A DNA stretch of 64,000 nt from Candidatus Jorgensenbacteria bacterium (GTDB lineage Bacteria > Patescibacteriota > Minisyncoccia > UBA6257 > GWB1-50-10): the NCBI GenBank assembly GCA_043807585.1, contig JAZDFV010000001.1, positions 46,590 through 110,589 on the forward strand, written 5' to 3'. A program made the translations under genes and the position numbers. Below, piece by piece: positions 4,360 to 54,129 of the stretch. How positions within the stretch are numbered: the first letter of the stretch is position 1; the number at the start of each line of letters is the position of its first letter. The notes below the pieces were generated by a model. That model was given only the letters and a program-made list of their open reading frames with translations, did not search any database and had not been told where the DNA came from.

Positions 4360-5358
4360 TCAAGTATAGCGCAACGACGCGATAGAGAGGATATCCTCCA
4401 CCGAGAGGTCTTGCGGGCGCCCCTCCGGCTTCATTCCCGCACCGCGCAGTTTCTCCGCGACCTCATGTCGTGCAACGCGCGGGTCTCCCGCGGTAAGGTT
4501 GTTGAGGATGGTCTTCCGCGGCTGTTTGAAAAGTGCATGGACGAGAGTGTAATACGCCGCAGGGTCGTATGCGGGCACTTTGGTGTCCAAGGCGAGGATG
4601 GCGGAGTCCACCTTCGGCGGTGGGCTAAATTCTTTTCTTGGAATGTAGCCGACGATGGTCGGCGCAGCCCAAAGTTGGATGCTCGCCGCCAATAAATTCA
4701 TTTTTGGCGGTTTCGCGATTATCCGTTCCGCGACCTCTTGCTGGACGGTGAGAACTACCCGAGTAATCAATGATTGATGATTGGTAATTAAATCACCAAT
4801 GACGCGCAAAAGCCGCCCGGTGAGATAGAAGGGAATATTTCCGACTATTTTATAGTTGGGATTTCTAATTTCCCCGCCTGTGGCGACCTGCGCTTCGTCG
4901 AAGGCTTCTCGCCTCGTCTCCGACGACGAGTCGGAGCGGGCGGCAAGGTGAGGGCTTCGGCGGGCGGGTAATTTCAAATTTCTAATCAATTTTGGAAGAA
5001 TTTTCAGAACATCACCTTCAATGATTTCAATTTTGGAATTTTGTGGTTTGGAATTTGTTTGGGAATTGTCCCGACCTTGTCGAGGACTCGCGACGAAGTC
5101 GGAGGAAATCGTCTCCATACGGGAGATCCCGCGAAGCGGGAGAAATTGGAAATTTTTTCTGAGTGAGGCAACCAACAAAGAATCTCGTTCTATGAGAATA
5201 AAGCGCGCTCCTGGCGTTTTTATCAACTCCTTGGTGAGCTCCCCATGCCCTGGGCCTATTTCCACCACCGTGTCGCTGGGTTCAAGTTCGAGCGCCCCCG
5301 CGATGCGGCGGAGATATATTCGAGATTCAAGAAAATGTTGCCCTAATCGTTTTCCCAT
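4360..5358 (-). CDS. rsmA: 16S rRNA (adenine1518/1519-N6)-dimethyltransferase RsmA/KsgA, with an ~50-aa inserted segment
   Basis: Motifs KRLGQHFL, VVEIGPGHGELT and NIPFY. ORF is 337 aa where ~265 is usual. Start placed at the second Met (MGKRLGQHFL). Confidence 0.85.
   Translation of the reverse strand: MGKRLGQHFLESRIYLRRIAGALELEPSDTVVEIGPGHGELTKELIKTPGARFILIERDSLLVASLRKNFQFLPLRGISRMETISSDFVASPRQGRDNSQTNSKPQNSKIEIIEGDVLKILPKLIRNLKLPARRSPHLAARSDSSSETRREAFDEAQVATGGEIRNPNYKIVGNIPFYLTGRLLRVIGDLITNHQSLITRVVLTVQQEVAERIIAKPPKMNLLAASIQLWAAPTIVGYIPRKEFSPPPKVDSAILALDTKVPAYDPAAYYTLVHALFKQPRKTILNNLTAGDPRVARHEVAEKLRGAGMKPEGRPQDLSVEDILSIASLRYT
4969..5068. repeat. AT-rich repeat tract (GAAATTC / TTGGAATTT units) embedded in-frame in rsmA
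   Basis: Local GC drops sharply. Units shared with intergenic copies at 19650-19810 and 33055-33170. The ORF reads through. Confidence 0.7.
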
Positions 5359-5362
5359 AAAT

Positions 5363-5387
5363 ATTAACGACATCGTAAGTCGTTAAT
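5363..5387. promoter_or_regulatory. 25-bp palindrome ATTAACGAC-atcgtaa-GTCGTTAAT just upstream of rsmA; candidate operator
   Basis: An identical 25-mer recurs at 13099-13123 in the rpsO/xer divergent region. Confidence 0.5.
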
Positions 5388-5498
5388 TTTGTTTTTTTAC
5401 AGCATACATATACTATTAAGACCATTAGTACTATAAGCCATAATAGCCCGCATCCCAAGCGGGTTTTCATAATAGTTGCCGTCGTGCTCTTTTTTCTG

Positions 5499-6446: not shown

Positions 6447-6450
6447 ACGC

Positions 6451-8759: not shown

Positions 8760-9953
8760 CTAAAACCCTAATCGGCGGGCTGCCTCTGCACCCGCAGCGG
8801 CGTTTGTGGATATAAGAAGTGTACGGTTAACCCATGTGTAGCCGAGAGTGGACCCGGGCGTTGCAAAGTCAGCCAGCGAGGCGGGGTGTCCCTTGATGGT
8901 GCCGTCCCGCCATGCGCCCCCTACACCAGGGTTGGTAAGGAAAAAGTTTCCATTATCGGGGTCGTGTTGGAGCAAGCTCATTTTTCCCTGTGCGTCGCCG
9001 AGGTTCGCCGCGCCTTTCAGAGGTACCGCGAGGCCGAACCAAGTGCCGTCGGCTGCCGCGTAGGTGAAGTAGGTTGCGTCATCAGCGAAATATGCCAAGA
9101 TATCGGTGGTGAAGAAGCCCGGGACGAGGCGCTTTGCGAGTTCCCCAAACGCCATCACTTTCCCTTCGGCGGTTTTTAGCACCACCTCGCGGAAGAGCGG
9201 CACCGAGGCGTGGTCAAATGGAAGCGCTGCTTGCAACCCCACCACGCTCACGGGGGTGAGGGTAATATCGGTGCGGATGTCGGCGGGAATCGTGAAGAGA
9301 GTCGCGTGAGTATCGATGCCTCGGATCACTTCAGCCGGCGTCGAGGTCGGCGCGGGCACTACTGGCGGTGTGGGAACTACTGGCGGTGTGGGAACTACTG
9401 GCGGTGTTGGCGTTCCGCTTGGAGGTGGCGTTGCCACTTCTTGCGCGGGGGTTCCGGCGAACATCGGATAGATGAAGAAGTATCCCACGGCGGCGAGGCC
9501 TATCACCACCACAAACGAGATGATGCCGATGAAGATACCTCGCTTTGACCTGGGTTTTCCCGCGGGCATTGGAGGCAGAGGTGCGGGCGGCCCGACGGGT
9601 ACGGGCGGTTTTGGAGGAACACCTGCCTGCGCGGGCAGGCCGGCAGTTCCTATTCTGGGCGGTGTGAAAGGAATTGCGGGTTTTGAAAACGGGGCGGCGG
9701 GAGGACTGCCGGGGACCCCGGGCGGCGGCGGTGGCACTGGCCTGGGGACGTAAGAGCGGGGCTCTCCCCCTCCCTGCTCCTGCATAGAGCGGAGGTCCGA
9801 CCCCATGGTCCGCACCTCGGTCTTTGGTTGCGTCGACGGCGCGAGCGGCACCTCTCCCTCACCCGTTGGGAGATTCTTTGGGGGCTGTGGGGTACCCCAT
9901 CCGGGAGTCGTGGTTTCCATGCTTCTATTATACATCCTGTGAAAAGCATCCAC
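8760..9953 (-). CDS. proline-rich membrane-anchored protein with a C-terminal globular domain, hypothetical
   Basis: TM helix GIFIGIISFVVVIGLAAVGYFFIYPMF. PTPPVV x3 encoded by an 18-bp tandem repeat (9355-9414). True start probably internal to the ORF. Confidence 0.5.
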   Translation of the reverse strand: MDAFHRMYNRSMETTTPGWGTPQPPKNLPTGEGEVPLAPSTQPKTEVRTMGSDLRSMQEQGGGEPRSYVPRPVPPPPPGVPGSPPAAPFSKPAIPFTPPRIGTAGLPAQAGVPPKPPVPVGPPAPLPPMPAGKPRSKRGIFIGIISFVVVIGLAAVGYFFIYPMFAGTPAQEVATPPPSGTPTPPVVPTPPVVPTPPVVPAPTSTPAEVIRGIDTHATLFTIPADIRTDITLTPVSVVGLQAALPFDHASVPLFREVVLKTAEGKVMAFGELAKRLVPGFFTTDILAYFADDATYFTYAAADGTWFGLAVPLKGAANLGDAQGKMSLLQHDPDNGNFFLTNPGVGGAWRDGTIKGHPASLADFATPGSTLGYTWVNRTLLISTNAAAGAEAARRLGF

Positions 9954-10012: not shown

Positions 10013-12091
10013 CTAACGAGGCGGAATGTTTTTGAGCGAGAGTCCGATGCGCCCATCGGGGTCCGCACGGACCACCTTGGCTCGCACGCGATCGCCCATG
10101 TGCACCACGTTTTCCACATTCTGCACAAACCCCTCTTTGAGCTCGGAGACATGGATCATCCCGTCACGGCCGCCGCCGAGGTCCACGATGGCGCCGAAAT
10201 CCATGATTTTTATCACCGGTCCCTCCACGATATCCCCCACTTTATATTCCCGCGTAACCGCCTCCACCATAGCGAACGCTTTCTTGCCCGCCTCCGCATC
10301 GTTTGCCGACACGAACACGGTGCCGTCCTCGTCGATATCAATATCCACCTTATCTTTCCCGCCGCACGCATCAATAATGCCGTTGATGACCTTGCCGCCG
10401 GGGCCGATGAGCGCGCCGATCTTTTCCACCGCGATGCGGATGATCTTGATGGCGGGCGCGAAGGGCGACAGTTGTGGACGCGGCGCAGAGAGCGTTTTCG
10501 CCATCACGTCCAAAATGTGCAGGCGTGCCTTCTTGGCTCCCGCGAGCGCGTCTCGGAAAATTTCGGGCGTGATGCCGTTCACTTTCGTGTCCATCTGGAT
10601 AGCGGTGATGCCGTCGCGCGTGCCCGCCGTTTTCATGTCCATGTCGCCGTAGTGGTCCTCGGGCCCCTGGATGTCGGTGAGAATTTTGTATGGCCTATCG
10701 GCCCAATCGGACTTCCCGTAATTATCAACCATTAGCCCCATTGCGATGCCCGCCACGGGGGTCTTTAAAGGCACACCCGCGTCCATCAAGGCAAGCGAGG
10801 TGGCGCAGGCCGAGGCCATTGAGGAAGAGCCGTTCGATGAGAGCGTCTCCGCGACCACGCGGATGGTGTAGGGGAAAATGTCCTTCGGCGGGATGAGATT
10901 GCGCACCGCTTTTGCGGCGAGAGCCCCATGGCCTATCTCGCGGCGGCCCGGACCGCGCGCGCGGCCGGTTTCACCGGTGGAGAAACTTGGGAAGTTGTAG
11001 TGGAGCATGAAGCGCCGTTTTTCTGTGGACTCCATCGTTTCCACGATCTGTTCCGCGGAGGGAGAGGCGAGCGTTACCACGGCGAGGATTTGAGTATCGC
11101 CACGGATGAAAAGCGCCGAGCCGTGGAGGCGCGGGACGAGCCCCACCTCGGCGTAGAGGTCGCGCACTTCGTCGAATCGGCGCCCGTCGGGACGTTCGTT
11201 CTTTTCCAGCGCCGCACGCCGCACGTGCGCATCTACCGCATTTTCAAAGATGGTGTCGGCAAAACCCATAGCCTCTTCGCCGCCGTCGGTTGTGGCGAGG
11301 TACTCGTGGAGCGCCTTCAACAGGGCGCCCAGCGTTTTCGCGCGAATGGCGTCCGCGAGTTTTTCCTCGATGAAACCGAGCACCGTCGTTTTTGTTTGCG
11401 CCGACGGCTCCGCGAGCGGCACATCCATTTTTTTCTTGCCTATTTTCTCCGCGACGTCGCGCTGGAATGCCACGAGCGCCGCGATCTCTTTTTGGGCGCG
11501 CGCGAAGAGCTCCTGCACCTCCTCCTCCAAAACCTCGGCTCCTTCAAATTCGATCATGTTCACGAGCTTTTCGGGGCCGGCGAAGAAGGCCTGATGTCGG
11601 AGCGAGCCGTCGGGGTTCGTCGCGTTCAGTGATACTCCTGCCACTGGCCCGTTCCACGGAATATCCGAAATGGCGAGCGCGGCGGAGGTGGCGAGGAGCG
11701 CCACGGCGTCCGGGTCGTGTTTCTCGTCGTATGCGATGACCGTCACGGTTACCTGCACTTCGCGCCGGAGCCGCTGGTCAAAGAGCGGTCTGACGGTGCG
11801 GTCAATGAGGCGTCCGGAGAGCACCGCGTCATCGGAGGCCCTCCCCTCGCGCCGTACGAATCGGCTCCCGAGAATTTTCCCCGCGGCGTAGAAGCGCTCC
11901 TCGTAGTCAACAGTCAAGGGGAAGTAGTCGGTGGTGGTTTCTTTATCGCCTATTACCACGGCGGCGAGGACCACGGTATCCCCGTGGCGCCCCATGACGG
12001 CACCGTTCGCTTGATGGGCGAGTTCGGAAACCTCCAAGCTTACCGGTTCTCCATTGAGCGTGCTTTTGAAAATTTGGCGATTGAGATCCAT
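10013..12091 (-). CDS. pnp: polyribonucleotide nucleotidyltransferase (PNPase)
   Basis: 692 aa with two RNase PH domains plus KH and S1 domains (e.g. GRREIGHGALA, VKVGDIVEGPVIKIMDFGA). Confidence 0.95.
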   Translation of the reverse strand: MDLNRQIFKSTLNGEPVSLEVSELAHQANGAVMGRHGDTVVLAAVVIGDKETTTDYFPLTVDYEERFYAAGKILGSRFVRREGRASDDAVLSGRLIDRTVRPLFDQRLRREVQVTVTVIAYDEKHDPDAVALLATSAALAISDIPWNGPVAGVSLNATNPDGSLRHQAFFAGPEKLVNMIEFEGAEVLEEEVQELFARAQKEIAALVAFQRDVAEKIGKKKMDVPLAEPSAQTKTTVLGFIEEKLADAIRAKTLGALLKALHEYLATTDGGEEAMGFADTIFENAVDAHVRRAALEKNERPDGRRFDEVRDLYAEVGLVPRLHGSALFIRGDTQILAVVTLASPSAEQIVETMESTEKRRFMLHYNFPSFSTGETGRARGPGRREIGHGALAAKAVRNLIPPKDIFPYTIRVVAETLSSNGSSSMASACATSLALMDAGVPLKTPVAGIAMGLMVDNYGKSDWADRPYKILTDIQGPEDHYGDMDMKTAGTRDGITAIQMDTKVNGITPEIFRDALAGAKKARLHILDVMAKTLSAPRPQLSPFAPAIKIIRIAVEKIGALIGPGGKVINGIIDACGGKDKVDIDIDEDGTVFVSANDAEAGKKAFAMVEAVTREYKVGDIVEGPVIKIMDFGAIVDLGGGRDGMIHVSELKEGFVQNVENVVHMGDRVRAKVVRADPDGRIGLSLKNIPPR

Positions 12092-13098: not shown

Positions 13099-13123
13099 AA
13101 TTAACGACATCGTAAGTCGTTAA
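13099..13123. promoter_or_regulatory. second copy of the 25-bp palindrome ATTAACGACatcgtaaGTCGTTAAT, in the rpsO/xer divergent promoter region
   Basis: Identical to 5363-5387. Followed by a second imperfect palindrome TTTTGCAACACAaaaaTGTGTCGCAAAA and a TATAAT 6 nt before the xer ATG. Confidence 0.5.
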
Positions 13124-13177
13124 TTTATTTTGCAACACAAAAATGTGTCGCAAAATAATCTTTGCTATAATGAGGCG

Positions 13178-16426: not shown

Positions 16427-16468
16427 AAACAAACCCCGTTGAGAAAAACTCAACGGGGTTCTTTTATT
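16427..16468 (+). terminator. rho-independent terminator (AACCCCGTTGAG-aaaaa-CTCAACGGGGTT followed by a T-tract)
   Basis: Perfect 12-bp stem followed by cttttatttg. Confidence 0.7.
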
Positions 16469-16554
16469 TGACAAATTTAGGGGTTTATGCTATCCTCCAA
16501 TTAGAATCTGAACAACTATTAAAACCGAATTAGGACAATTAAGGAGTGATTGTC

Positions 16555-17418
16555 ATGAAAAATCTTGGATCTGTAGAGAAAAACGCTCCGAATTTCAAAG
16601 GAATATTCAGAACGTTGGTTGTCGTATTTATTGTCCTTGCTGCATTTCTGCTCCTCATTGCTGCTGGCCAACTCGTCTTTTTCTTTGAGATGTTTGGTTG
16701 GTTTCAGCATCAAGTAAGGAGTTTGACTGGAGCTGACGTGTTGATCGCGAACGGTATCGCAGCGGTCATCATGGCGATCATTTTCGCCCTCCCCTTGTTG
16801 GCATTTCTTAGATCATTTCTGCCATTTCCGCAGAGGAAACGTGTTATGTACCGCGTTTCGATACTCTCCTTTTTTGCCATTCTCTTTTTCGCCTCGTACA
16901 TCCTTTCCCAGGACGTGTTTTTCGATCCGGATACGGGAGCGCCATTGAAGTACTACACCATTCGTCCGGATGGAGCGTACAAGTTCTATTCTACGGGAGG
17001 ATATGATGCTTTTACTGGCGACACCCTAAAAAGGGTTACAAAGGAAGTTGTGCTCCGCTATTCTGGTTTCCGCGATAGCAAACCGTCATCAGAGCGTCCG
17101 TCGGTTACTGCAAACACCGTGCAGCAGTTTGAAGCCAAAGAGGGGCAGGTATGGGTGAAGGCGGGTGAGCAGATCACCGATACGCTTGAAATGGGGCGAT
17201 GGTCTAAGCTTTTCCACCTCCCCCCTGACCACAAGAAGTTTTCCATGGATGTTTCTGAGGAGTTCCATGGAATACGGTTTTGGGATGGAACGGAGTGGGA
17301 TCGTGCGCAGATTCTCAACTATTTGAAATCGCACGATGGGTGGATGAGCACCGTGCCGTCAGCCTCCTTCCGGCTCCGCGGGAAGGGAGTTGTCACCATT
17401 ATGGTGGCAGCCAAGTAG
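16555..17418 (+). CDS. membrane protein (4 predicted TM) with a C-terminal soluble domain, hypothetical
   Basis: AAGGAG RBS 8 nt before ATG 16555. Local GC is lower than elsewhere in the window. Confidence 0.55.
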   Translation: MKNLGSVEKNAPNFKGIFRTLVVVFIVLAAFLLLIAAGQLVFFFEMFGWFQHQVRSLTGADVLIANGIAAVIMAIIFALPLLAFLRSFLPFPQRKRVMYRVSILSFFAILFFASYILSQDVFFDPDTGAPLKYYTIRPDGAYKFYSTGGYDAFTGDTLKRVTKEVVLRYSGFRDSKPSSERPSVTANTVQQFEAKEGQVWVKAGEQITDTLEMGRWSKLFHLPPDHKKFSMDVSEEFHGIRFWDGTEWDRAQILNYLKSHDGWMSTVPSASFRLRGKGVVTIMVAAK

Positions 17419-17430
17419 AAACAGTAACGA

Positions 17431-17470
17431 ACCCCGTTGAGGAAAACTCAACGGGGTTCTTATATTTTGC
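17431..17470 (+). terminator. rho-independent terminator, near-identical copy of the one at 16427
   Basis: AACCCCGTTGAG-gaaaa-CTCAACGGGGTT followed by cttatatttt. Confidence 0.7.
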
Positions 17471-17480: not shown

Positions 17481-17816
17481 TTAGCACCCGCTCGCGGAGG
17501 TGCAGAGGAGCGCTTTCGTGAGCGCGATGATGCCGGTGGCGAGGATAGCAGTCGCGACCGCGATGACCGCGTAGATGAGTTGTTTCTTCGCCGCCTCCAC
17601 CTTTTCCGCGCTTTCGCCTGCGGTGAGGAACGTGAATGCGGCGAAAATGATAAAGACCACGGCAACGGCGAGGAGAACGGCATAGGCCCAGCCACTGAAC
17701 TTATCTATGGCGGCAATCACCTTTGTCGGCGTGTCGATGTCCGAGGCCGCGAGAGCGGGCGCGGGGGAAAAGAGAGCGGCGGCCGTGAACCAGAAACTTT
17801 TAATGGGTAGTTTCAT
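17481..17816 (-). CDS. pilin-like small protein P1 (TrbC/VirB2-like T4SS-pilin architecture)
   Basis: Signal peptide (AALFSPAPALA) and two hydrophobic helices separated by a short charged loop (AAFTFLTAGESAEKVEAAKKQLIYAVIAVATAILA). Cys-containing C-terminus. Confidence 0.6.
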   Translation of the reverse strand: MKLPIKSFWFTAAALFSPAPALAASDIDTPTKVIAAIDKFSGWAYAVLLAVAVVFIIFAAFTFLTAGESAEKVEAAKKQLIYAVIAVATAILATGIIALTKALLCTSASGC

Positions 17817-17833
17817 AGCGCTTTAGTTTGCCG

Positions 17834-18274
17834 TTACGGAGGAGAGCAACTCCAGTCCCAGGTGTTGCAGATTTGGCCTGGTGGGCAGTAGACAGTGCCG
17901 CATAGTACTCCGGTGGGCGTTGTGAAAAACACCTGCGTGAGGTACACGATGCCGGTGGCGAGGATGGCCACCGCAAGCGCCACCACGGCGTAGATGATGT
18001 AGTTCTTTGCCTCCTTCACCTTCTCCTCATCTCCCCCGGATGTGAGGAAAAGGAAGGCCGCATAGACGATGAAAACCACAGCGAGGGCGAGGATGATGCC
18101 CCAGAACCACCCGCCCAGTTTCACGAGGAGCGCCACCACCGCATCGATTGGTGATGCGCTTGTTGATACGACCGACGTAGGCGGCGCGTTGGTGACCACA
18201 GCGCTTGCGAGGAGAGGGAGGAGCGCGGCCACTCCTATCGCTACCCATACCGACCTCGGCGTTTGCATGTGCAT
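17834..18274 (-). CDS. pilin-like small protein P2, with a Cys-rich C-terminal tail
   Basis: Core FLFLTSGGDEEKVKEAKNYIIYAVVALAVAILATGIV. Tail CGTVYCPPGQICNTWDWSCSPP. Confidence 0.6.
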   Translation of the reverse strand: MHMQTPRSVWVAIGVAALLPLLASAVVTNAPPTSVVSTSASPIDAVVALLVKLGGWFWGIILALAVVFIVYAAFLFLTSGGDEEKVKEAKNYIIYAVVALAVAILATGIVYLTQVFFTTPTGVLCGTVYCPPGQICNTWDWSCSPP

Positions 18275-18370
18275 ATTATAAGTGAAACAAAACCTCCCCG
18301 GTTACTTTCCCATTGTACCACAGCGTGTGGGGATGGGAAGCTCCAGGGGAGGTTTTTACGCTCCATGGTT

Positions 18371-18721
18371 TTAGATCGTCTGCCCGAAGAATACAGTCGT
18401 TACTACATACACGATACCTCTTGCGAGAACGCCAATTGCAATCGCGATGATGGCGTAGACAAGGTAGTTTTTCGCCGCCTTCACCTTTTCCTCATCGCCA
18501 CCGGAGGTGAGGTAAAGGAATGCTGAGTAGAGGATAAAGAGGACCGCGACGGCAACGAGGATGCCGAAGAACCAGTTCCCGATTTTTGTGATGAGAGCAG
18601 TGATGTCGGCGTAGCTGCTTATATTTTGTGCCAGAGTCGGCGGCTGCGCGCCCGCGAAGAGCGGTAGAGCCAAAGCCCCAACCATGGCAATTCCCGCGCC
18701 GATCTTCATAATTGATTTCAT
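18371..18721 (-). CDS. pilin-like small protein P3
   Basis: Core FLYLTSGGDEEKVKAAKNYLVYAIIAIAIGVLARGIV. N-terminal signal peptide. Confidence 0.6.
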   Translation of the reverse strand: MKSIMKIGAGIAMVGALALPLFAGAQPPTLAQNISSYADITALITKIGNWFFGILVAVAVLFILYSAFLYLTSGGDEEKVKAAKNYLVYAIIAIAIGVLARGIVYVVTTVFFGQTI

Positions 18722-19649: not shown

Positions 19650-19810
19650 CTGTTAAACTCTAAATTCTAATATCTAAACTCTAAACAAATTCCAACAACA
19701 AATCTCAAATAACAAATAAATCTCAAATTCAAAACTGTTTCGGTCATCGGAACTTATTTGGAATTTGGTGCTTGGAATTTGGTGCTTGTTTAGGATTTAG
19801 GATTTCGTGT
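19650..19810. repeat. AT-rich palindromic intergenic element (CAAATTCCAA ... TTGGAATTTGGTGCTTGGAATTTGG, GGATTTC units), homologous to 33055-33170
   Basis: Shared core AATTCAAAACNGTTTCNGTCAT plus TTGGAATTTGG arms. Local GC is about 30%. Confidence 0.65.
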
Positions 19811-19872
19811 TTCGGATTTCACCTTGCTTTCACTCATTATACCTACTCCGTGATTTGCGGGCATCCGCAGAA

Positions 19873-21184: not shown

Positions 21185-21270
21185 GTCTTAGTGACAATAA
21201 CAATTACTATAACGATGACAATCTCCTCTCTTCACTTTTGTCATAGTTATCGTCATGGTCATAGTGGTTT
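21185..21270. repeat. AT-rich palindromic intergenic element (ATAACGATGAC / GTCATCGTTAT units); the same family sits inside gyrA at 21881-21951
   Basis: Inverted arrangement CTATAACGATGACAAT ... GTCATAGTTATCGTCATGGTCATAG. Confidence 0.6.
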
Positions 21271-23809: not shown

Positions 23810-23816
23810 GATTGGG

Positions 23817-26460: not shown

Positions 26461-26498
26461 TACCTCACTTTTTCGTATATAGTAGTGTTGCTAACCAT

Positions 26499-28457: not shown

Positions 28458-28458
28458 C

Positions 28459-33051: not shown

Positions 33052-33054
33052 ATT

Positions 33055-41847: not shown

Positions 41848-43992
41848 ATGCTTGAGACGCGATACGATTCCAGGACGCTGGAAGCGAGGATCTATAAGTT
41901 GTGGGAGCAATCCGGTTATTTCAACCCGGATAACCTGCCTGTAAAAAAATCGGCCAAAAACTACATCGTTTACATGCCCCTCCCCAACGTGACGGGGTCG
42001 CTCCACATGGGGCATCTTTTGAACAATGCCATTCAGGACGTGCTTGTTCGTTACGAACGCATGCGCGGGAAGAGGGCGCTCTACCTCCCCGGCACGGACC
42101 ACGCAGGCATCGCGACGCAATATGTCGTCGAGAAAGAGCTCAAGAAGCAGGGGATAAATCGCTGGGAGCTCGGGCGTGAGAAATTCATAGAGAAAGTATG
42201 GGAGTGGAAAAAGCAGTACGGAGGTGTCATTTTCGACCAACTCAAGAAGATCGGTATCTCGGCGGATTGGTCGCGCGTCCGCTTTACCATGGACTCCGCA
42301 TATACCAAGGACGTTCTTGAGGCATTCGTCCATTACCACAAAAAGGGCTTGCTCTATCGCGGGTTCCGCACCGTGAACTGGTGCCCCAGGGACGGGACGA
42401 GTTTATCCGAACTCGAGCTTGAATATAAGGACGAGAAAACGTCGCTTTGGTTTATACGCTATAGCGGGCTCATTGTTGCGACGACGAGGCCGGAAACAAT
42501 GCTCGGGGATACCGCGGTCGCGGTGAACCCTCGGGACAAGCGCTATGCGAAATGGATCGGTGGGAAGGTGACACTCCCAATAGAGAACAGGGAGATACCG
42601 GTTATCGCCGACGATGCAATAGATCCCGAGTTCGGAACGGGCGCGGTGAAGGTGACGCCTGCGCACGACATCGCCGACTTCGAGATCGGTGTGCGCCACA
42701 AACTCCCTACGATACAGGTCATCGACGAACGCGGAAAGATGAATGCGCGAGCGGGGGAATATGCGGGTATGAAAGCGGAGGACGCGCGGGAAAAGATAGT
42801 TGAGAGGCTTGAGCGTGAAGGACTTTTGGAAAAAGCCGAGCCATACGAACACCGCGTCGCGGTTTGCTATCGGTGTGGTGCGACGATAGAACCGCTTCCG
42901 TCATCGCAGTGGTTTTTGAAGATGGAGGGCCTTGCAAAGGAGGCGCTCGGGGCGGTGAGGAGCGAGAAAGTGAAGATATGGCCGAAGAATTTTGAGCGTC
43001 CGTACCGCGATTGGCTCTCGAACATCCGCGACTGGACGGTATCGCGTCAGATATGGTGGGGGCACCAGTTACCTGTTTGGTTCTGTAAAAACCAAACAGG
43101 AATTTCTAGTGACAAATTTCTGATTTCTAAACCGAAAGAGGAGCAGTTCGTGGTCGCATTGGAGAAACCGAAAACGTGTCCGTTCTGTAGAAATTGCGAC
43201 ATGGAACAGTCGCCCGACGTATTGGACACGTGGTTCTCGTCCGCGCTCTGGCCGTTCGCGGGTTTCTCCGAAGACGATCTCAAAAAGTATTATCCAGGAA
43301 GCGCACTCATCACCGCGCGCGACATTCTGAATTTGTGGGTCGCGCGAATGATATTTTCCGGCCTTGAGTTCAGGAAGAAACTGCCGTTCGCTAACGTGTT
43401 CATACACGGGACCATTTTGACGAAAGATGGGAAGCGCATGTCCAAAAGCTTAGGCACGGGCATCGATCCGCTCCGTTGCATAGAGCGGTACGGGGCGGAT
43501 GCCGCGCGCTTCGCGGCGATCTGGCAGGCCACCGGGCAAGACATCCGTTGGGACGAGGCGGCGGCCGTCGCGGGCATGAAATTCTGCACCAAGATTTGGA
43601 ACGCGGCGCGGTTCGTCATCGCGCACGTGCCGGCGAAGGCGTTCGCGGCGAAGGCGCGCCCCCGCGGGATTACGGCGGCGGACAGAACGATCCTCAAGAA
43701 ACTTTCGGCGGCTACCTCGCAAACCGAAGGGCTCATTGGAACGTTCGCATTCAGCAAAGCGCTCCGCGGGCTCTATGATTTTTTCTGGCATGAGTTTTGC
43801 GATATATACGTGGAACGATCAAAAAAGCAGCTCGCCGACGGGAAGCTCAAGAAGAACACCGAGATTATGCTCGCGTACGTGCTTTTCTCGTCGCTGAAGC
43901 TGCTCCATCCGTTCCTGCCGTTCGTGACAGAAGCGCTCTATCAGGAACTCCCGCGGCGGGAGCGTGAATTCCTCATGATCGCGCCATGGTGA
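41848..43992 (+). CDS. valS: valyl-tRNA synthetase (short form, lacks the C-terminal coiled-coil)
   Basis: HMGHLLN (HIGH) and KMSKSLGTG (KMSKS) motifs plus editing domain. Start trimmed to MLETRYD. Confidence 0.95.
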   Translation: MLETRYDSRTLEARIYKLWEQSGYFNPDNLPVKKSAKNYIVYMPLPNVTGSLHMGHLLNNAIQDVLVRYERMRGKRALYLPGTDHAGIATQYVVEKELKKQGINRWELGREKFIEKVWEWKKQYGGVIFDQLKKIGISADWSRVRFTMDSAYTKDVLEAFVHYHKKGLLYRGFRTVNWCPRDGTSLSELELEYKDEKTSLWFIRYSGLIVATTRPETMLGDTAVAVNPRDKRYAKWIGGKVTLPIENREIPVIADDAIDPEFGTGAVKVTPAHDIADFEIGVRHKLPTIQVIDERGKMNARAGEYAGMKAEDAREKIVERLEREGLLEKAEPYEHRVAVCYRCGATIEPLPSSQWFLKMEGLAKEALGAVRSEKVKIWPKNFERPYRDWLSNIRDWTVSRQIWWGHQLPVWFCKNQTGISSDKFLISKPKEEQFVVALEKPKTCPFCRNCDMEQSPDVLDTWFSSALWPFAGFSEDDLKKYYPGSALITARDILNLWVARMIFSGLEFRKKLPFANVFIHGTILTKDGKRMSKSLGTGIDPLRCIERYGADAARFAAIWQATGQDIRWDEAAAVAGMKFCTKIWNAARFVIAHVPAKAFAAKARPRGITAADRTILKKLSAATSQTEGLIGTFAFSKALRGLYDFFWHEFCDIYVERSKKQLADGKLKKNTEIMLAYVLFSSLKLLHPFLPFVTEALYQELPRREREFLMIAPW
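43072..43135. repeat. palindrome CCTGTTTGGTT-ctgtaaa-AACCAAACAGG plus an AT-rich tract embedded in valS
   Basis: Perfect 11-bp arms overlapping the codons for QLPVWFCKNQTGISSDKFLISK. Confidence 0.65.
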
Positions 43993-45716: not shown

Positions 45717-47156
45717 CTACCTCCAGTATAGGTTGAATTTCCTCCCGCGGTCAAACTCGTTTCTGAACTTTTCAAAGCTCGCGGCGCCGGGGGAGAAAAG
45801 GACGAAGGAAGACGTGTCCTGCCTCACCTTTTCCTTCACCGCGCGGATGAGGGAGGGGAGCTCCTCAAAAAGCTGTGGATAAGATTTTCCGAAGTAGCCG
45901 ACCCTCCTGAGCGCCCGCACCATCTTTTTGGTGGCGCTCCCGCCGAGGAGGAAAAGGCGCTCCGGTTTCACGCGGCGCTTCACGGCGCGGGCCCATCCGT
46001 TGAATTCCAGTTTTTTGTCCGTGCCGCCCGCGATGAGGATGAGATTTTTGTTTTTGAAGCGGGCAAGCGCCGCGATGGTCCCGTCAGGCGAGGTGGCGGC
46101 GGTGTCGTTCACCACCGTGAGATGCTTTCGCGTCACAATGAACTCCTGCCGGAAGGGAATTTGCGGGAGCGTGGGGATACGCCTCCGGATTTCTGGCCAC
46201 GGGATTCCCAAGAGATGCGCTGCGAGCATCGCCGCAAGGAGATTCCGAAGGTTGTGGGTGCCCTGTGGTGCGAATGCACGCACTGCACGAGCATTCAAAA
46301 CCTCCGTCTTCAATTTTCGGAAGTCCGACTTCCGAAAATTAGAGAGAACGCGATTGTGGGAGAGGTAGATGCCATCGCGGTTTCCGGGGAGCGGTTTCAG
46401 CGAGAAAAAGTACGTTGCACTCTTCAGTTTCCGCTTGAGGAAGAATGGCGTCCACTCATCCTCGGCGTTCAGGATGAGCGACTGCGTTTTTTTCTGGCGC
46501 GCGAAGATGTTTGCCTTCGCGCGCGCGTAATCGTTCATCCCGCGGTAGCGGTTAAGGTGGTCGGGGTAGAGATTTGTGATTATGGCGATATCGGGGCCGC
46601 GGCGGGCGCGGTCTACCTGCTCAAGCTGCCACGAGGAAAGCTCAACGACCGCGGGAATTTTGGTACTCACCAGCCGGTCGATCACGGAGAGGAGCGGCAT
46701 CTCGGGAGTGTTCCCAGCCGCCACCGCGCTCAGGTGGCGGCCTTTCATGAAGTGAGCGATCCAGTTCGTGGTGGTGGTTTTTCCCCGCGTGCCGGTCACC
46801 GCCACGACGGGATTCCGGACGAGGTCGAGGAATATCTTTGCGTCGTTCGTGATATCATTTCCGGCACGGCGCGCAATTTTCAAAAACTTACTCTCTCGGG
46901 GCACCGCCGGGTTCACTACGATAAGATCGTGCGTTTTAAAATCGCCCGGGCGGTGATGGCCAAGAACGAACTTCACCTTTTTCGCGCTTGTGCCGAGCGC
47001 GCGAATGGAAACCGCGAGCTCGCGCCGTGTACGGAGATCGGTCACGGTGACTTTCGCGCCGTGCTTCACGAACCACTTCGTGGTCGCGACTCCGCCTCCC
47101 AAAACCCCTAGACCCATCACGAGGACTTTTTTGTCTTTGAATTCTCCAGCGCGCAT
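45717..47156 (-). CDS. murD: UDP-N-acetylmuramoylalanine--D-glutamate ligase MurD, with a palindromic insertion
   Basis: KVLVMGLGVLGGGVATTKWFVKHGAKVTVTD N-terminus. GTRGKTT P-loop. Mur ligase middle and C-terminal domains. Confidence 0.9.
   Translation of the reverse strand: MRAGEFKDKKVLVMGLGVLGGGVATTKWFVKHGAKVTVTDLRTRRELAVSIRALGTSAKKVKFVLGHHRPGDFKTHDLIVVNPAVPRESKFLKIARRAGNDITNDAKIFLDLVRNPVVAVTGTRGKTTTTNWIAHFMKGRHLSAVAAGNTPEMPLLSVIDRLVSTKIPAVVELSSWQLEQVDRARRGPDIAIITNLYPDHLNRYRGMNDYARAKANIFARQKKTQSLILNAEDEWTPFFLKRKLKSATYFFSLKPLPGNRDGIYLSHNRVLSNFRKSDFRKLKTEVLNARAVRAFAPQGTHNLRNLLAAMLAAHLLGIPWPEIRRRIPTLPQIPFRQEFIVTRKHLTVVNDTAATSPDGTIAALARFKNKNLILIAGGTDKKLEFNGWARAVKRRVKPERLFLLGGSATKKMVRALRRVGYFGKSYPQLFEELPSLIRAVKEKVRQDTSSFVLFSPGAASFEKFRNEFDRGRKFNLYWR
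46291..46350. repeat. perfect palindrome AATTTTCGGAAGTC-c-GACTTCCGAAAATT (46312-46340) with AT-rich flanks, embedded in murD
   Basis: 14-bp arms. Encodes LSNFRKSDFRKLKTEV in-frame. Confidence 0.75.
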
Positions 47157-49911: not shown

Positions 49912-50034
49912 CCGCCATCGTTGCTGTTCAGTTCATAAACAAAAACAGCCCGGAGGGGCCTTTTTTGTTCTATTTAATTTATATCACTTTCAACGATCGT
50001 TGAAAGTGATATACTTTCCATTCCTCACAATTTC

Positions 50035-51345
50035 TCACTCCGCTCCTGCAGCTTTCTCTTCCGTTTTTTCTTTCTCTGCTTCTGTTTCTTCCGGCGTTTC
50101 CTTAGTTGCCCCGCCCTCGGGGCTCACGGCGATGCCGCCCTCCTGTACCTCCTCGGGGCGGGATTGCGAGCGGACGTCGATCTTCCATCCGGTGAGCTTC
50201 GCGGCGAGTCGGACATTCTGGCCGCCCTTACCGATGGCCAAGGAGAGCTGGTCCTCGGCGACGAGCACCTTCGCCTCGCGCCGCGGCATGATCTCCGTGA
50301 GCTTCGCCTTGGCGGGGGAGAGGGCGTTCCCGATGTACTTCTCCTGCTCCTCGGCCCACTCGATGATGTCAACTTTTTCGTTGCCCAGTTCGTTCGTGAC
50401 CGCCATTACGCGTGTGCCGCGCTGGCCTACCGCGGCCCCAACCGGGTCCACCCCCTCGGCGCGGGAGGCGACCGCCACCTTCGTGCGGCTCCCCGGCTCG
50501 CGGGCAATACCCTTGATCTCCACGGTGCCGTCGGCGATCTCCGGCACCTCCATCTCGAACAGTTTTTTCACGAAGTTCGGGTGGGAGCGGGAGAGGATGA
50601 TGCCGGGGCGGCGCGGGTCGTCCTGCACCGCGAGGACGTAGAAGCGGAGGCGCTCCCCGATTCGGTAGTGCTCGCCGGGAATGCTCTCCATGCCGAACAT
50701 GACTCCCACTGCGCGGCCGATGTCCACGTACACGTTGCCGCGGTCAAAGCGCTGGACGATGCCGCTCACGATGGCGCCTTCCTTGTCTGCAAATTCCTTG
50801 CGGATGGAGGCGCGCTCCGCCTCGCGGATGTTCTGGAGAATGACCTGTTTTGCGGTCTGCGCGGCGATGCGCCCGAAATCCTCGTGGGTCTCAAGCGGGA
50901 ATTCCATCTCTTCGCCGGGGGCGGCGTCGGACTTGAGCTCTAGTGCCTCTTCAAGGAAGATGTGGCGGTCCGGATTGTAGCGGGGGAGCGATTCTTCTTC
51001 CTCACTTACTATAGCCTTAGCGGAGGCGGGTTCATGTTGTTCTGATTTCTCACGTTTCTCGCCCCCATCCAGTTTCTCCACCGCTTCCGCTTCCGGTTCC
51101 ACGATGCGGACCTCGGATGGATCCACCACCGTTTTCACCTGGGAGAACACCATCTCGCCACTTTTCAAATCGAACCTGCACTTCACGATCTCGGAGCGTT
51201 TGCGGTACTCGCGCTTGTACGCCGCGGCGATTGCGGCCTCGATGGCGCCCAAAACCTGCTCGGGTTGTATACCCTTCTCCGCGGCTATCTGTTCCGCCGC
51301 ACCGGCGAGGGCCTTGAGATCTATGTGCATCCTTTTAGTAAACAT
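50035..51345 (-). CDS. nusA: transcription termination/antitermination factor NusA
   Basis: N-terminal domain, S1, two KH domains and an acidic C-terminal tail. Confidence 0.95.
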   Translation of the reverse strand: MFTKRMHIDLKALAGAAEQIAAEKGIQPEQVLGAIEAAIAAAYKREYRKRSEIVKCRFDLKSGEMVFSQVKTVVDPSEVRIVEPEAEAVEKLDGGEKREKSEQHEPASAKAIVSEEEESLPRYNPDRHIFLEEALELKSDAAPGEEMEFPLETHEDFGRIAAQTAKQVILQNIREAERASIRKEFADKEGAIVSGIVQRFDRGNVYVDIGRAVGVMFGMESIPGEHYRIGERLRFYVLAVQDDPRRPGIILSRSHPNFVKKLFEMEVPEIADGTVEIKGIAREPGSRTKVAVASRAEGVDPVGAAVGQRGTRVMAVTNELGNEKVDIIEWAEEQEKYIGNALSPAKAKLTEIMPRREAKVLVAEDQLSLAIGKGGQNVRLAAKLTGWKIDVRSQSRPEEVQEGGIAVSPEGGATKETPEETEAEKEKTEEKAAGAE

Positions 51346-51996: not shown

Positions 51997-52427
51997 TCTA
52001 GCGTTACTGGGTAAAATCCTATCACAAATGTTCTATTCTGTCAAACCCCTGCCTTCGGCAGACAGGCCCACACCCATACATAGGTGTGGGGGTCAGATAA
52101 CAGGCATGGTCAGAGGTTCAGATTCCCGTCCACAGGGAATAGCTTGACTTTTTATTGCCTATATGCTACGATGCAAACAGATTATAAAAGGGGCATTCAG
52201 CCCTCGATGTTGAAAACCAAATATGTGAATAGCGGTGAGATTCACCAGCAACGCAGTGAGAGCAATAAAGCATCAATATTGTTCCTGGTGCGCTGCTGGT
52301 GAGGGAAATAAATGGATCCTTGCCAACCCGTCACATGTCTGCGGCTCGGCAGCGGCTCGGACAGTCGCCTGATAAGAACAGGCGATGACCCAATCGGCCG
52401 ATAAGAACGGCTGAAAGGAGAAACACT

Positions 52428-52982
52428 ATGTCACCTCAAAAATCGCTGAGGATAGCGCGAATAACGCGCATATTGGAAAGGGTGCGGGATTTTGGGCCGG
52501 CTTTCCTCATACTGCCGCTCTTTCTCCTGTTCGCTCTCGATTTAGCATTTCTTGCTTGGAACGCAGGGATTGAAACGGTCATCAGGCCCTCTGGGGCGGC
52601 GACCCTAGACCTGGGCGCTTCGATTATTCGGGCAGTGGCATTTCTCGCGGCAGAGGTATTCATAATACTCAGCTCTCTATATCTTGCAGTTCAATGCAGC
52701 ACGAAACTTCTTCCTGACCCCATCATCAATGTGATTCAGTTCTTGATTCTCTGCAGGTCTTATCCATTGAGTGCTAAGGATCGGATGGGGGTGGCAAGAG
52801 CTGCGGTGTCCGCTCTCGCGGCACGCTTCGTCAGTATGTCGGATGAGAAAGCTGGTATCAGCAAGCGCGATGATCCAGAACTTAGTGCCGCCTGCGAATT
52901 GCTTTGGCGGGCCGTGAAATATGCCAAGGAAAATGGGTGCCCGATTCAGGGGGAGAGTGCGAGAGATTTTGTCATCTCGTAG
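52428..52982 (+). CDS. membrane protein, hypothetical
   Basis: AAAGGAG RBS. Two or three TMs. Confidence 0.45.
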   Translation: MSPQKSLRIARITRILERVRDFGPAFLILPLFLLFALDLAFLAWNAGIETVIRPSGAATLDLGASIIRAVAFLAAEVFIILSSLYLAVQCSTKLLPDPIINVIQFLILCRSYPLSAKDRMGVARAAVSALAARFVSMSDEKAGISKRDDPELSAACELLWRAVKYAKENGCPIQGESARDFVIS

Positions 52983-53034
52983 TAGAATCAGTTAGAGCGC
53001 CCGGCAGAAATTCATTCTGCTGGGCGTGTTGTTT

Positions 53035-54129
53035 TTACAAATTCAGATTCCCGTTCGCAACTAAGGGAAGTTTTTCCTTGCGGAGGTAGGCGATGTAGCC
53101 GGCGGCACCGATGATGGCGGCATTGTCGGTGTTCAGGTTCATAGGGGGAGCGAAGAAATCGACAGACAACTTACGACTAACGACTAACAACTCTTCGCGG
53201 AGCGCGGAGTTTGCCGCGACGCCGCCCGAGAGCATGATGGACCTGGCTTTATATTCCCGCGCCGCGCGTTCCGTTTTCGCAGCGAGGACGTCAATTGCGG
53301 CTTGCTGGAAACTTGCGGCGATATTCGCTGCGAACGCGGATTTATGCGGATTTTTTACTGATTTATGCGGACATTTATTGTCGCGGAGGTAGTAGAGTAC
53401 CGAGGTTTTGAGTCCGGAAAAGCTGAAATCATAGTTCTTCGAGTGGAGCATCGGGCGGGGGAATGGGATGGCGGCGGGATTGCCCTGCGCGGCGAGCTTC
53501 TCGATCTCTGGGCCACCTGGGTAGGGGAGCTCGAGGAGCCGTGCCACTTTGTCGAACGCCTCGCCCACCGCGTCGTCGCGGGTCTCGCCGAGTTTTTTCA
53601 TTTTAGTAAGCGAATCCATCTTGAGCAGGATGGTGTGTCCCCCGGAAACGATGAGGGCTACTGCTGGAAAAAGTTTAGAAATTAGAAATTTGGAATTAGA
53701 AATTCCAGTTTTCTCCGAAAGGAGAAAACTGTACAGGTGTCCCTCCAGGTGGTTCACGCCGATGAGTTTCAGCTTTGAGCTTCTAGGTTTTAGCCTTAAG
53801 CAAATCTCTTGGGCAAAATTCACGCCTGTCCAGAGCGCGGGTTCCAGGCCTGGGCCAACGGTAACGGCGATGAGGTCAGGGATAAATTTCGAATTTCGGA
53901 TTTCGGATTTCGAATTTGCAAAAACCTTCCGATAAAGTATCGGAAGGTTTTTGAGGTGCTCCCGCTTCGCGAGGTTTGGCACCACGCCGCCGAACGGGCG
54001 ATGGATTGCAATCTGCGAGGAGACGAGGTTTTCGAGAATTTTAAACCGCGGGGCGCGGAGACCCCCCTGCGCCTCAAGGAGTGCAATCGCGGTTTCGTCA
54101 CACGATGTTTCTATCGCGAGAACGCGCAT
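53035..54129 (-). CDS. tsaD: tRNA N6-adenosine threonylcarbamoyltransferase TsaD (Kae1/YgjD), with two repeat-encoded loop expansions
   Basis: MRVLAIETSCDETAIALL, GVNHLEGHL, VSGGHT and DNAAMIG-like motifs. The ORF 5-prime extension is rejected. Confidence 0.9.
   Translation of the reverse strand: MRVLAIETSCDETAIALLEAQGGLRAPRFKILENLVSSQIAIHRPFGGVVPNLAKREHLKNLPILYRKVFANSKSEIRNSKFIPDLIAVTVGPGLEPALWTGVNFAQEICLRLKPRSSKLKLIGVNHLEGHLYSFLLSEKTGISNSKFLISKLFPAVALIVSGGHTILLKMDSLTKMKKLGETRDDAVGEAFDKVARLLELPYPGGPEIEKLAAQGNPAAIPFPRPMLHSKNYDFSFSGLKTSVLYYLRDNKCPHKSVKNPHKSAFAANIAASFQQAAIDVLAAKTERAAREYKARSIMLSGGVAANSALREELLVVSRKLSVDFFAPPMNLNTDNAAIIGAAGYIAYLRKEKLPLVANGNLNL
53672..53735. repeat. AT-rich tract (TTAGAAATT units) plus the perfect palindrome CAGTTTTCTCC-gaaa-GGAGAAAACTG (53706-53731), embedded in tsaD
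   Basis: Encodes LSEKTGISNSKFLISKLF. About 10 aa longer than E. coli TsaD at this loop. Confidence 0.8.
53884..53953. repeat. heptamer repeats (GAATTTC / GGATTTC) plus the perfect palindrome AAAACCTTCCGATA-aag-TATCGGAAGGTTTT (53921-53951), embedded in tsaD
   Basis: Encodes YRKVFANSKSEIRNSKFIPD. Confidence 0.8.

Follow-up and report, generated by a model that had tools for sequence, protein, structure and literature searches.

Hairpin repeats built from 7-nt units lie in frame within essential genes of a Candidatus Jorgensenbacteria genome and appear to be related to 23S rRNA intervening sequences

In a 64,000-nt stretch of DNA from Candidatus Jorgensenbacteria bacterium (GenBank assembly GCA_043807585.1, contig JAZDFV010000001.1, positions 46,590 to 110,589; hereafter the window), the genes rsmA, gyrA, glyA, folD, valS, murD and tsaD contain short tracts made of 7-nt repeat units, of hairpin palindromes, or of both, all of which are read through in frame. 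What are these tracts, where do they come from and how do essential genes accommodate them? A first-pass annotation, made from the letters alone, had proposed a small mobile or recombining palindromic element comparable to the Rickettsia palindromic elements (RPE). In its essentials this idea holds, as there are in-frame as well as stand-alone copies and the occupied sites are polymorphic among relatives. On the other hand, the tracts of the window are several distinct repeat families, GC-rich ones included, and the perfect palindromes are templated by the host genes. We consider it probable that two processes acting at the DNA level are superimposed, the spread of a hairpin-forming repeat element and template switching at inverted repeats. 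The host is a member of the Candidate Phyla Radiation (CPR, Patescibacteria) and not a classical endosymbiont; its genome had been put at about 60% GC, while the window has 55.4%.

The repeat load of the window clearly exceeds expectation. It contains 22 perfect hairpins (stem of at least 10 bp, loop of at most 10 nt) compared to 0-2 in Markov shuffles, with about 0.6 expected. In terms of density these are 3.4 perfect hairpins per 10 kb, while 764 kb of non-CPR control loci have 0.69; deep inside genes the respective values are 1.9 and 0.29. The 7-nt units initially noticed are also detected by Tandem Repeats Finder as period-7 arrays, at 19654-19686, 19756-19820, 21564-21593 (AGCTTTG, 4.3 copies), 32541-32606 (9.9 copies), 33142-33166, 53675-53704, 53885-53917 and 59949-59978. 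Period 7 is enriched specifically over periods 5, 6 and 8-10, and its density per 100 kb (12.5 in the window, 19 in related Parcubacteria) is about ten times that of controls (1.2 in non-CPR loci; 1.3 in other CPR). Low GC content was thought to characterize the tract in each gene. This does not apply to folD, whose insert consists of GC-rich nested hairpins, nor to the core of the second rsmA insert, which is of the same kind.

The window comes from a metagenome-assembled genome and repeats can mis-join contigs, which would make an artefact of assembly or a chimera a natural suspicion. We attach next to no probability to it, because reading frames and Pfam domains are unbroken through every tract, orthologous inserts are present in independent NCBI, ENA, JGI and Logan assemblies (the source of the relatives referred to below by L numbers, which were chosen through exact-protein matches, a scan of genome collections with the GlyA alignment having had CPR at about 7 of 80 loci among the matches listed) and elements lie between functionally paired genes. 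Pfam domain matches flank the tracts on both sides in RsmA, GyrA, FolD, ValS, MurD and TsaD, and the peptides originally quoted are correct; GlyA was identified through its 100% identity to a protein of a Candidatus Jorgensenbacteria metagenome-assembled genome, an identity that TsaD shows as well, and through alignment to a solved serine hydroxymethyltransferase (SHMT) structure.

Which tracts are copies of one another? The argument centres on a family that we call Family 1, whose arm of about 65 nt consists of four AAATYCN units, AAACAAATTC, three to four further units and AATGACC(A/G)AAAC. A single arm lies in glyA (32541-32606, plus strand; four GAAATCN units, the junction GAAACAAATTC and four GAAATTC units), where it is translated in frame into KSEIRNQKSETNSKFEIRNSK. 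Positions 32542-32604 match an nhmmer profile built from 85 metagenome arms (described below) with an E value of 1.3e-15. Site a of tsaD has a truncated arm on the minus strand (53885-53917; nhmmer match 53887-53917, E=4.7e-6) encoding NSKSEIRNSKF in frame, and the first rsmA insert (5016-5064, minus strand, in-frame peptide NSQTNSKPQNSK) is a partial arm, comprising the junction and the inner units, that aligns with profile positions 26-74 (E=1.3e-4). The same family occurs between genes. A doublet composed of an A-rich arm, a centre with GTTTCGGTCAT and a T-rich arm fills the spacer between two minus-strand genes (19650-19830), and in its alignment invariant positions recur every 7 nt. A second doublet (33050-33166) fills the glyA-folD spacer and its first unit provides the glyA stop codon. 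That the two intergenic elements are homologous, as had been suspected for 19650-19810 and 33055-33170, is borne out by a common core, AAAACWGTTTCRGTCATYG, and by the fact that both arms of each match the arm profile, albeit more weakly than the coding arms do. The profile also matches the glyA and valS inserts of the syntenic relative L081.

Extragenic copies are not restricted to the window. When metagenomes were scanned for the junction motif AAATYCSAAACAAATTCSAAA, at least 120 stretches matched; 80 loci were read and gave 85 arm instances, on 80 contigs with a GC content between 0.32 and 0.67. When aligned, the 85 arms show a sharp 5′ edge, unrelated flanks and a constant unit order (AAATCCG AAATCCG AA(TAT|GCA)CG AAATCCG AAACAAATTCG AAATTC AAATGxxC AATGACC(A/G)AAAC). 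Adjacent arms are arranged as A-rich arm, loop and T-rich arm in 29 pairs, with a single pair in the opposite order. We therefore regard the AT-rich tracts of 7-nt units as probable copies of hairpin-forming repeat elements, the complete form of Family 1 being an inverted doublet. Intergenic copies have precisely this structure, with a median length of 157 nt (about 127-170 nt), arms that are about 83% complementary to each other, terminal inverted repeats of the form 5′-AAATYCGAAATCC ... GGATTTCGRATTT-3′ and, around some of them, GC-rich clamps. In the compact genome studied here such doublets take up whole intergenic spacers. One locus departs from this arrangement, with five arms in tandem and in one orientation (L244, 5666-5977), an array form seen at no other locus read.

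Familiar labels do not fit these sequences. A simple microsatellite would lack the fixed unit order, the junction and the inner motif of Family 1 (arrays of the AGCTTTG x4 type, on the other hand, do fit that description). TIGR-Tas arrays are ruled out by the absence of a 36-nt periodicity, and a phage feature was rejected since only two of 86 junction-motif matches on viral contigs had the repeat context. Our search of the open-access literature, by topic and with literal sequence strings, found no account of Family 1, nor of such elements in CPR or Verrucomicrobia, in agreement with the initial impression that nothing comparable had been described for a high-GC reduced genome.

The host range is broader than that of a lineage-specific repeat. 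On one contig (L239), which encodes a TonB-dependent receptor, a histidine kinase and a sigma-54 response regulator, a Family 1 element fills the spacer between kinase and regulator. The response regulator matches a Chthoniobacter protein at 94% identity, which identifies the contig as Chthoniobacter (Verrucomicrobiota); the arm is nearly unchanged in this soil Verrucomicrobium of 67% GC. Family 1 thus reaches at least the Verrucomicrobiota, and is neither lineage-specific nor confined to reduced genomes. On another contig (L172, 125-2031) a doublet at 1347-1531 lies between genes with the pyrrolysine-insertion signals of mtbB and mttB (Rfam, 84.9 and 69 bits), which hints at a methylamine-using, possibly archaeal host. 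A further contig bearing a doublet also contains a group II intron (L203, 1801-2386; Rfam D1-D4, catalytic core).

Where might such an element come from? Four doublets (in L248, L183, L191 and, as a fragment, L196) enclose a gene of 117-121 amino acids (aa) belonging to PF05635 (23S_rRNA_IVP, 40.8 bits) and TIGR02436 (four helix bundle protein, 68.7 and 59.5 bits), whose product also matches the PDB entry 2rld. All four PF05635 hits in 494 kb of element-bearing loci sit exactly between arms. The ATG of the gene falls within the AAATGAC motif at the inner end of the arm (...AAACAATTTCAA ATG ACA AAA...), and this motif is kept as AATGACCAAAAC by doublets that have no open reading frame (ORF) and as ATGACCGAAAC and ATGACTGAAAC by the two intergenic copies of the window. 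Because the start codon lies in the arm and the motif persists without the ORF, the copies of the window look like ORF-less derivatives of the longer form. [quoted passage not shown] Indeed, the ORF-carrying elements measure about 475-485 nt, and in size and layout they equal the ORF-containing 23S rRNA IVS of Coxiella (PMC4990558).

The PF05635/TIGR02436 four-helix-bundle family is found inside 23S rRNA IVS and is related to the Avd protein of diversity-generating retroelements, whose retrohoming requires Avd plus a hairpin beside the target. IVS are considered selfish elements of unknown origin and mobility with signs of horizontal transfer; their stems are substrates of RNase III, which excises them, and a role in mobility was at one time suggested for their ORF (PMC4990558). 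The ORF-carrying rRNA IVS (Coxiella, Leptospira) are the closest structural relatives of Family 1, with which they share terminal inverted repeats, a long stem around a PF05635/TIGR02436 gene of about 120 aa and a length of about 430-490 nt, as well as the standing of selfish elements of uncertain mobility with signs of horizontal transfer (PMC4990558). They differ in location. Family 1 occupies protein-coding sequences and the spaces between protein genes instead of helix 25 or 45 of 23S rRNA; Rfam detects no rRNA gene in the window, none of the 80 element-bearing loci has a copy within an rRNA gene, and the sole large-subunit rRNA fragment among them (L210) carries no arm. Moreover, Family 1 is mostly ORF-less with arms made of heptamer arrays, and excision could not rescue a coding copy. 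The long-stem termini and the S23p-type (PF05635/TIGR02436) ORF are thus found in Family 1, the ORF outside the window, while the 23S location is not.

A bolder extension, which we regard as a long shot, is that the heptamer-armed hairpins are the non-ribosomal and still active source of 23S rRNA IVS, with a protein of the S23p/Avd family moving or copying them by way of the 7-nt arms next to DNA hairpins or cruciforms. This would explain why arms stand beside palindromes made of host codons, why there are no target duplications, how the elements spread across phyla and possibly across domains, and why 7 nt serves as a ruler. If true, it would make these elements a major supplier of new surface loops in CPR proteins. 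Whatever its merit, the origin and mobility of IVS and the role of the S23p protein have been open since the early 1990s, and a large population outside rRNA, in part with and in part without the ORF, offers concrete sequences with which to approach them.

How can genes accept such insertions? In the metagenome sample, in-frame coding copies confirmed by Pfam were found in TatD, MiaA, TsaE, ValS, a GT4 glycosyltransferase, PpsA/PPDK, PurL and MurB. Coding copies are mostly single arms, and all 12 verified cases, taken from the metagenome sample, the window and its relatives, have the A-rich strand in sense orientation. Read this way the arm gives peptides rich in K, S, E, T, N and Q, while the opposite strand would give peptides rich in F, G, I and R. 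Since 7 has no common factor with 3, successive units are read in each of the three frames in turn, and the peptide composition is the same whatever the entry frame. The outer 46 nt of arms of the G and C flavours contain no stop codon in any of the six frames, a property met by 9 of 20,000 shuffles, whereas units of the T flavour (TAAATTC) contain stops and are seen between genes only. Arms inside genes would then survive only when their length is a multiple of three, their flavour is the stop-free G or C type, the A-rich strand is sense and the site is a surface loop. This design, a 7-nt unit that is free of stops in six frames and hydrophilic in sense, would account for their tolerance in genes, and the behaviour known from RPE is now seen in CPR.

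The inserts do lie where a protein can bear them. Compared with solved structures, TsaD has inserts of 6, 5, 10 and 11 aa (6nak_B), GlyA of 20 and 8 aa (Thermus SHMT; the 20-aa insert is the Family 1 arm), MurD of 3+9 aa and RsmA about 65 extra residues (6ifs_A), while FolD has 41 extra aa relative to a syntenic close relative. The AlphaFold model of TsaD has a mean predicted local distance difference test score (pLDDT) of 88, which falls below 50 only at residues 74-79 (KSEIRN) and 140-147 (KTGISNSK) and is 59 at 251-260; the three stretches are all located between secondary-structure elements. The suggestion that the tracts lengthen surface loops is therefore well founded. It could be argued that the loops are ancient, lineage-wide and of use to the protein, with the periodicity of the DNA being incidental, for the same insert sites recur in many Parcubacteria, the hydrophilic strand is the sense strand of every coding copy and eukaryotic SHMT has an insert at the GlyA site as well. 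However, the same nucleotide sequence recurs across unrelated proteins as well as intergenic DNA, the peptide is simply the three-frame translation of the 7-nt unit, the inserts have pLDDT values below 50 and nucleotide conservation goes beyond any amino-acid logic. Alignment of orthologues reveals polymorphism in both presence and length. At the GlyA site (RGPRAALIF..AIDKAVFPG) the segment varies from 7 to 58 aa across 120 orthologues, with a mode at 28 (+21 aa, equal to 63 nt or nine heptamers), and on a neighbour-joining tree of these orthologues the site must have changed state 19 times or more. Hypervariability with recurrent peptide types is likewise seen at all four TsaD sites. We consider fixed ancient loops very improbable, and K/N/S/E/I-rich loops in CPR proteins are better annotated with the caution that they are repeat-derived.

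Closer relatives give a view of how the tracts change. The loci L081 and L082/L083 are syntenic with the window from gyrA to valS and carry lineage-specific inserts in valS, recA, folD and glyA. The glyA-folD doublet is present in L082, with a nested GC-rich module, whereas L081 has no such doublet and its glyA and folD genes overlap. When the window is compared with L081, the glyA insert has equal length but every unit is shifted alike, from GAAATCC to CAAATCC and from GAAATTC to AAAATTC. In valS an array of the AATTTCT type in the window corresponds to GAAATTC x4 in L081, and at tsaD site c (53638-53751) the window, L294, L295 and L296 have four different 4x7-nt arrays, period and length being kept while the unit is not. 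In both places one 7-nt array seems readily exchanged for another, in the manner of a hot spot. These cases raise the possibility that we are dealing with local microsatellites only, heptamers arising in place by slippage in a genome poor in repair and never being copied between loci. This lineage has an excess of period-7 arrays of several unrelated unit types (12.5-19 per 100 kb; controls, 1.2), which together with the four arrays in tsaD and the concerted change in glyA would fit such a process. Slippage alone, on the other hand, would produce neither the same arm sequence in many unrelated genes nor doublets with a polarity of 29:1, and Family 1 keeps its fixed, non-uniform order, its sharp boundary and its non-repetitive inner motif across phyla and from 32 to 67% GC. 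As a full explanation it is unlikely, and we would place it slightly behind the cis-acting role discussed below. Under the reading with two superimposed processes, template switching probably turns over adjacent arrays too.

The second of these processes is suggested by the palindromes. The five that had been listed all exist, with stems of 11 bp in glyA and valS, 14 bp in murD and 11 and 16 bp in tsaD, the last of them spanning 53919-53953 instead of 53921-53951. By their sequences, these short perfect palindromes are a separate layer, templated by the host and not element copies. In the GlyA, ValS and TsaD hairpins one arm is conserved host coding sequence and the other its co-varying inverted copy. 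The glyA hairpin (32605-32630, TTATCAATCGC-agaa-GCGATTGATAA) derives its right arm from the conserved A-I-D-K codons. Its arms are the same in the window and in L081, but the loop between them reads AGAA in the former and TTCT in the latter, in other words the loop has flipped, and in L293 a compensatory change from C-G to T-A converts ATCGC/GCGAT into ATTGC/GCAAT. The host-codon hairpin at glyA is confined to a Jorgensenbacteria-like subset; our assignment of GlyA inserts of the FLISELIDK type to this class was wrong for L290-L292. In valS the left arm of the perfect 11-bp hairpin (43072-43100) consists of the conserved L-P-V-W codons and is followed by an AATTTCT array of Family 2, the whole extending over 43072-43135 on the plus strand. 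Compensatory changes have kept this hairpin in three genomes, as GTTTGGTT/AACCAAAC, GTTTGGCA/TGCCAAAC and CAGTTTTTT/AAAAAACTG.

The same is seen twice in tsaD. The perfect 16-bp hairpin (53919-53953) encodes KNLPI-L-YRKVF, its left arm in gene sense being the conserved KNLPI codons, and is preserved in L295 through a compensatory change from AAC/GTT to AAT/ATT. The perfect 11-bp hairpin (53706-53731), one arm of which corresponds to the conserved Y-S-F-L-L codons, has as its counterpart in L295 a 9-bp hairpin with mutually compensating changes, AGTTTTCTC/GAGAAAACT becoming TCGTTTTTG/CAAAAACGA. Palindrome and array tend to occur together. Both the tsaD palindrome and the adjacent insert are present in the window and in L295, and both are missing from L294 and L296; L295 has a full Family 1 arm with junction at site a, where L294 and L296 have no arm. 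Among TsaD orthologues, a neighbouring insert of 12 aa or more accompanies a palindrome-type pentapeptide in 21 of 24 cases and is found in 30 of 92 cases without it (p=1.3e-6, uncorrected for phylogeny). In murD, a perfect 14-bp hairpin (46312-46340, SNFRKSDFRKL) lies within the 3+9-aa insert and is not accompanied by a heptamer array.

A perfect 11-bp palindrome in an HTH_25 gene (36972-36994) can be followed as it arose in this lineage through coordinated substitutions. Where relatives have GGA GCG AGT GAC ACG CTT CCC, the window has GGG GAA AGT GAC ACT TTC CCC, and five to six coordinated substitutions have thus perfected an imperfect repeat, with an A-to-E and an L-to-F replacement using complementary codons. 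Since a change in one arm is matched in the other from genome to genome, complementarity determines which amino acids the derived arm encodes. Template switching during replication of quasi-palindromes is an established mechanism (the Ripley model), and the palindrome changes have the footprints expected from it. Template switching may make, perfect and maintain short palindromes from host codons and flip their loops. Amino-acid changes driven by DNA structure are seen in essential proteins of a minimal genome (A to E together with L to F; E/K/T versus Q/K/R). As for the arms, we favour the view that they would be inserted either by hairpin-associated template switching or by a process assisted by the four-helix-bundle protein. 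The changes in the palindromes match quasi-palindrome mutagenesis and hairpin-loop inversion in their clusters of coordinated substitutions that perfect inverted repeats and in the loop flips between identical arms. A parallel is given by the mitochondria of Nematomorpha, in which protein-coding genes contain perfect inverted repeats with both arms translated (PMC6649704). The palindromes reported here differ from these cases in being 11-16 bp long, in a bacterial chromosome and beside heptamer arrays.

Could the hairpins be kept because they do something? RNase III or mRNA-stability sites, terminators, or arrays bound by a protein recognizing 7-nt repeats would be functional cis elements, and the copies in coding sequence would have been exapted from them. 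Conservation of the glyA arm speaks for this, since the insert is 83-85% identical between genomes in which synonymous third positions of glyA are 39-54% identical; from the sequences this could reflect either constraint on the nucleotides or refreshing from other copies. Doublets fill the spacers of co-directional genes (glyA-folD; the kinase-regulator pair) with strict polarity, the hairpins made of host codons are maintained by compensatory change, and IVS stems are RNase III substrates (PMC4990558). However, the close relative L081 does without the glyA-folD element, coding copies sit in low-confidence loops of freely variable length and no Rfam family matches. In the window only tRNAs reach the Rfam gathering threshold, and in the element-bearing loci the only matches were sub-threshold ones to models of eukaryotic miRNA precursors. 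The arms show no G-U-biased or compensatory pattern and the long arms no strand asymmetry in folding energy, and for these reasons we dropped an interpretation of the long arms as RNA genes. Nor is the orientation consistent: a hairpin followed by a T-rich tract, as in a terminator, fits valS, tsaD site c and antisense glyA and fails at tsaD site a, so that we abandoned it as a general rule. A cis-acting function is possible but rather unlikely, on a par with the idea of an active IVS source.

Several of our results nevertheless weigh against a hairpin element combined with template switching. Neither a transposase, a target-site duplication nor a target motif was found: there is no direct repeat beside any of the 29 doublets and no transposase between arms in the 494 kb of element-bearing loci. 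Mobility is therefore deduced from the distribution of the copies. Mismatches between the arms show no G-U excess (34 G·T, 46 A·C and 117 others), hence the long hairpin is not obviously conserved as RNA. A single non-CPR host, the Chthoniobacter of L239, could be named, and neither the window nor the close relatives read have a copy carrying PF05635. The high nucleotide conservation of the glyA arm may mean function and not selfish turnover, and the four arrays at tsaD site c are more easily explained if 7-nt arrays arise locally than if one fixed element is inserted. Finally, Families 2-6 are known from the window and a few relatives only.

To our knowledge, in-frame selfish palindromes have had essentially one textbook case, that of Rickettsia, and Family 1 behaves like these RPE. 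Both are palindromic families of about 100-150 bp with intergenic copies and with others inserted in frame into housekeeping genes of no common origin, at positions that the fold tolerates, the doublets of Family 1 having the hairpin-forming size of RPE, and no transposase is associated with either. The peptides that RPE add can be accommodated by the folded protein (review, PMC10969869). Family 1 differs by its hosts (CPR and Verrucomicrobiota), by arms of 7-nt units that are stop-free in six frames, by coding copies that are mostly single arms in place of whole palindromes, and by the PF05635 gene in some copies. Membership in RPE is unlikely given the taxonomy of the host, and the likeness described here is one of layout and behaviour. 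Bacterial MITEs (Correia/NEMIS, ERIC, Coxiella QMITE, Nezha) are also short, non-autonomous, multicopy elements with inverted repeats, at times intragenic and in frame, whose transcripts fold into hairpins. The terminal inverted repeats are present in Family 1, where they make up nearly the whole element; there is no target-site duplication, and the ORF-carrying relative encodes no known transposase that would qualify it as a parent, the PF05635 gene being the sole ORF found between arms. Family 1 thus works like RPEs and MITEs, yet with neither target duplication nor transposase it cannot be shown to belong to one or the other.

Two further systems share single traits. REP/REPIN sequences also occur as singlets and inverted hairpin doublets in the intergenic spacers of operons, without target duplications. 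REPs are, however, extragenic, GC-rich, species-specific and tied to a RAYT gene, whereas Family 1 copies are intragenic, AT-rich and cross-phylum; no Y1/RAYT gene was present among the proteins scanned, which covered part of the window ORFs, and the combination of extragenic location with RAYT association is not that of Family 1. The cyanobacterial short tandemly repeated repetitive (STRR) sequences consist, like it, of tandem 7-nt units dispersed through the genome. Their arrays are uniform, and they have no fixed arm, junction, inner motif, inverted partner or coding copies.

The remaining tracts belong to other families. Family 2 (AATTTCT/AGAAATT units) is common to tsaD site c, valS and the intergenic hairpin at 59945-60088, which occupies its entire spacer; the unit that this element was said to share with tsaD is indeed present in both. 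At tsaD site c the array (TTAGAAA/AATTTCT units, 53675-53704, minus strand, detected by Tandem Repeats Finder) encodes GISNSKFLISK in frame and is the 10-aa insert relative to 6nak_B. In L225, an outer element similar to 59945-60088 encloses a Family 1 doublet. The first gyrA insert (21881-21951, minus strand) is a whole hairpin with ATGAC-type units, both arms of which are translated, and its kinship with the intergenic hairpin of the same unit family just downstream of gyrA (21185-21270), as originally proposed, is apparent from local alignments of 27-33 nt with 82-85% identity. The second gyrA insert (21564-21593, minus strand) consists of 4.3 copies of AGCTTTG with 100% matches in Tandem Repeats Finder; the same unit occurs at tsaD site b (53766-53800), a 5-aa insert relative to 6nak_B. 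Site d of tsaD (53338-53381, minus strand, Tandem Repeats Finder) has a repeat of the ATCCGCATAAATC type encoding NKCPHKSVKNPHKS, an 11-aa insert that is hypervariable among orthologues and has a pLDDT of 59.

GC-rich nested hairpins form the second rsmA insert (4850-4990, minus strand; flanked by GAAATTA-type units, folding energy -49.5 kcal/mol over 174 nt) and the 41-aa folD insert (33605-33727, plus strand; -71.8 kcal/mol over 183 nt), which have the motif CGCCACAGGCG in common. The folD insert is absent in L081 and short in L082. Its peptide GRSSAPAAEAVLRSR resembles GGSSAPAADALLRSR, an insert in the GlyA protein P0087 of another organism, a likeness that suggests a second, GC-rich family of in-frame elements. 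In L082 the GC-rich hairpin module nested inside the AT-rich doublet (11260-11300, TCCGCCGAAAGCGGATCCGCCTCCGGCGGA) is also found in coding inserts of valS and recA, with peptides such as SAKGGSPPKADAP and QGGSASGG.

A number of other features were observed in passing. An identical palindrome, AATTAACGAC-atcgtaa-GTCGTTAATT, lies at 5385-5411 and 13099-13125, just upstream of plus-strand genes starting at 5484 and 13130, and may be a common operator. Near-identical terminator-like hairpins (16432-16460 and 17429-17459; ACCCCGTTGAG/CTCAACGGGGT) flank the ORF at 16546-17418 on both sides, a loop-less palindrome GGTGCTTCGATT|AATCGAAGCACC is found twice, at 61472-61497 and 62118-62141, with about 650 nt in between, and another loop-less perfect palindrome of 17+17 bp (49980-50013) is located in the spacer beside the gene at 50035-51345. 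The ORF at 8760-9953 contains three tandem copies of an 18-nt repeat with 97% matches (9354-9407). In the close relatives L082/L083, GyrA and FtsH contain inteins (Intein_splicing plus LAGLIDADG), while gyrA (21272-24076) and ftsH (26223-28343) of the window are intein-free as judged by their length. A gene for an rve-family integrase lies immediately downstream of tsaD in L294 (3358-4413). In the window, the genes for tRNA-Ile(TAT) and tRNA-Val(TAC) abut with no spacer (28386-28531), and three small tandem genes at 17481-18721 each match PF18895, a pilin family of type IV secretion systems.

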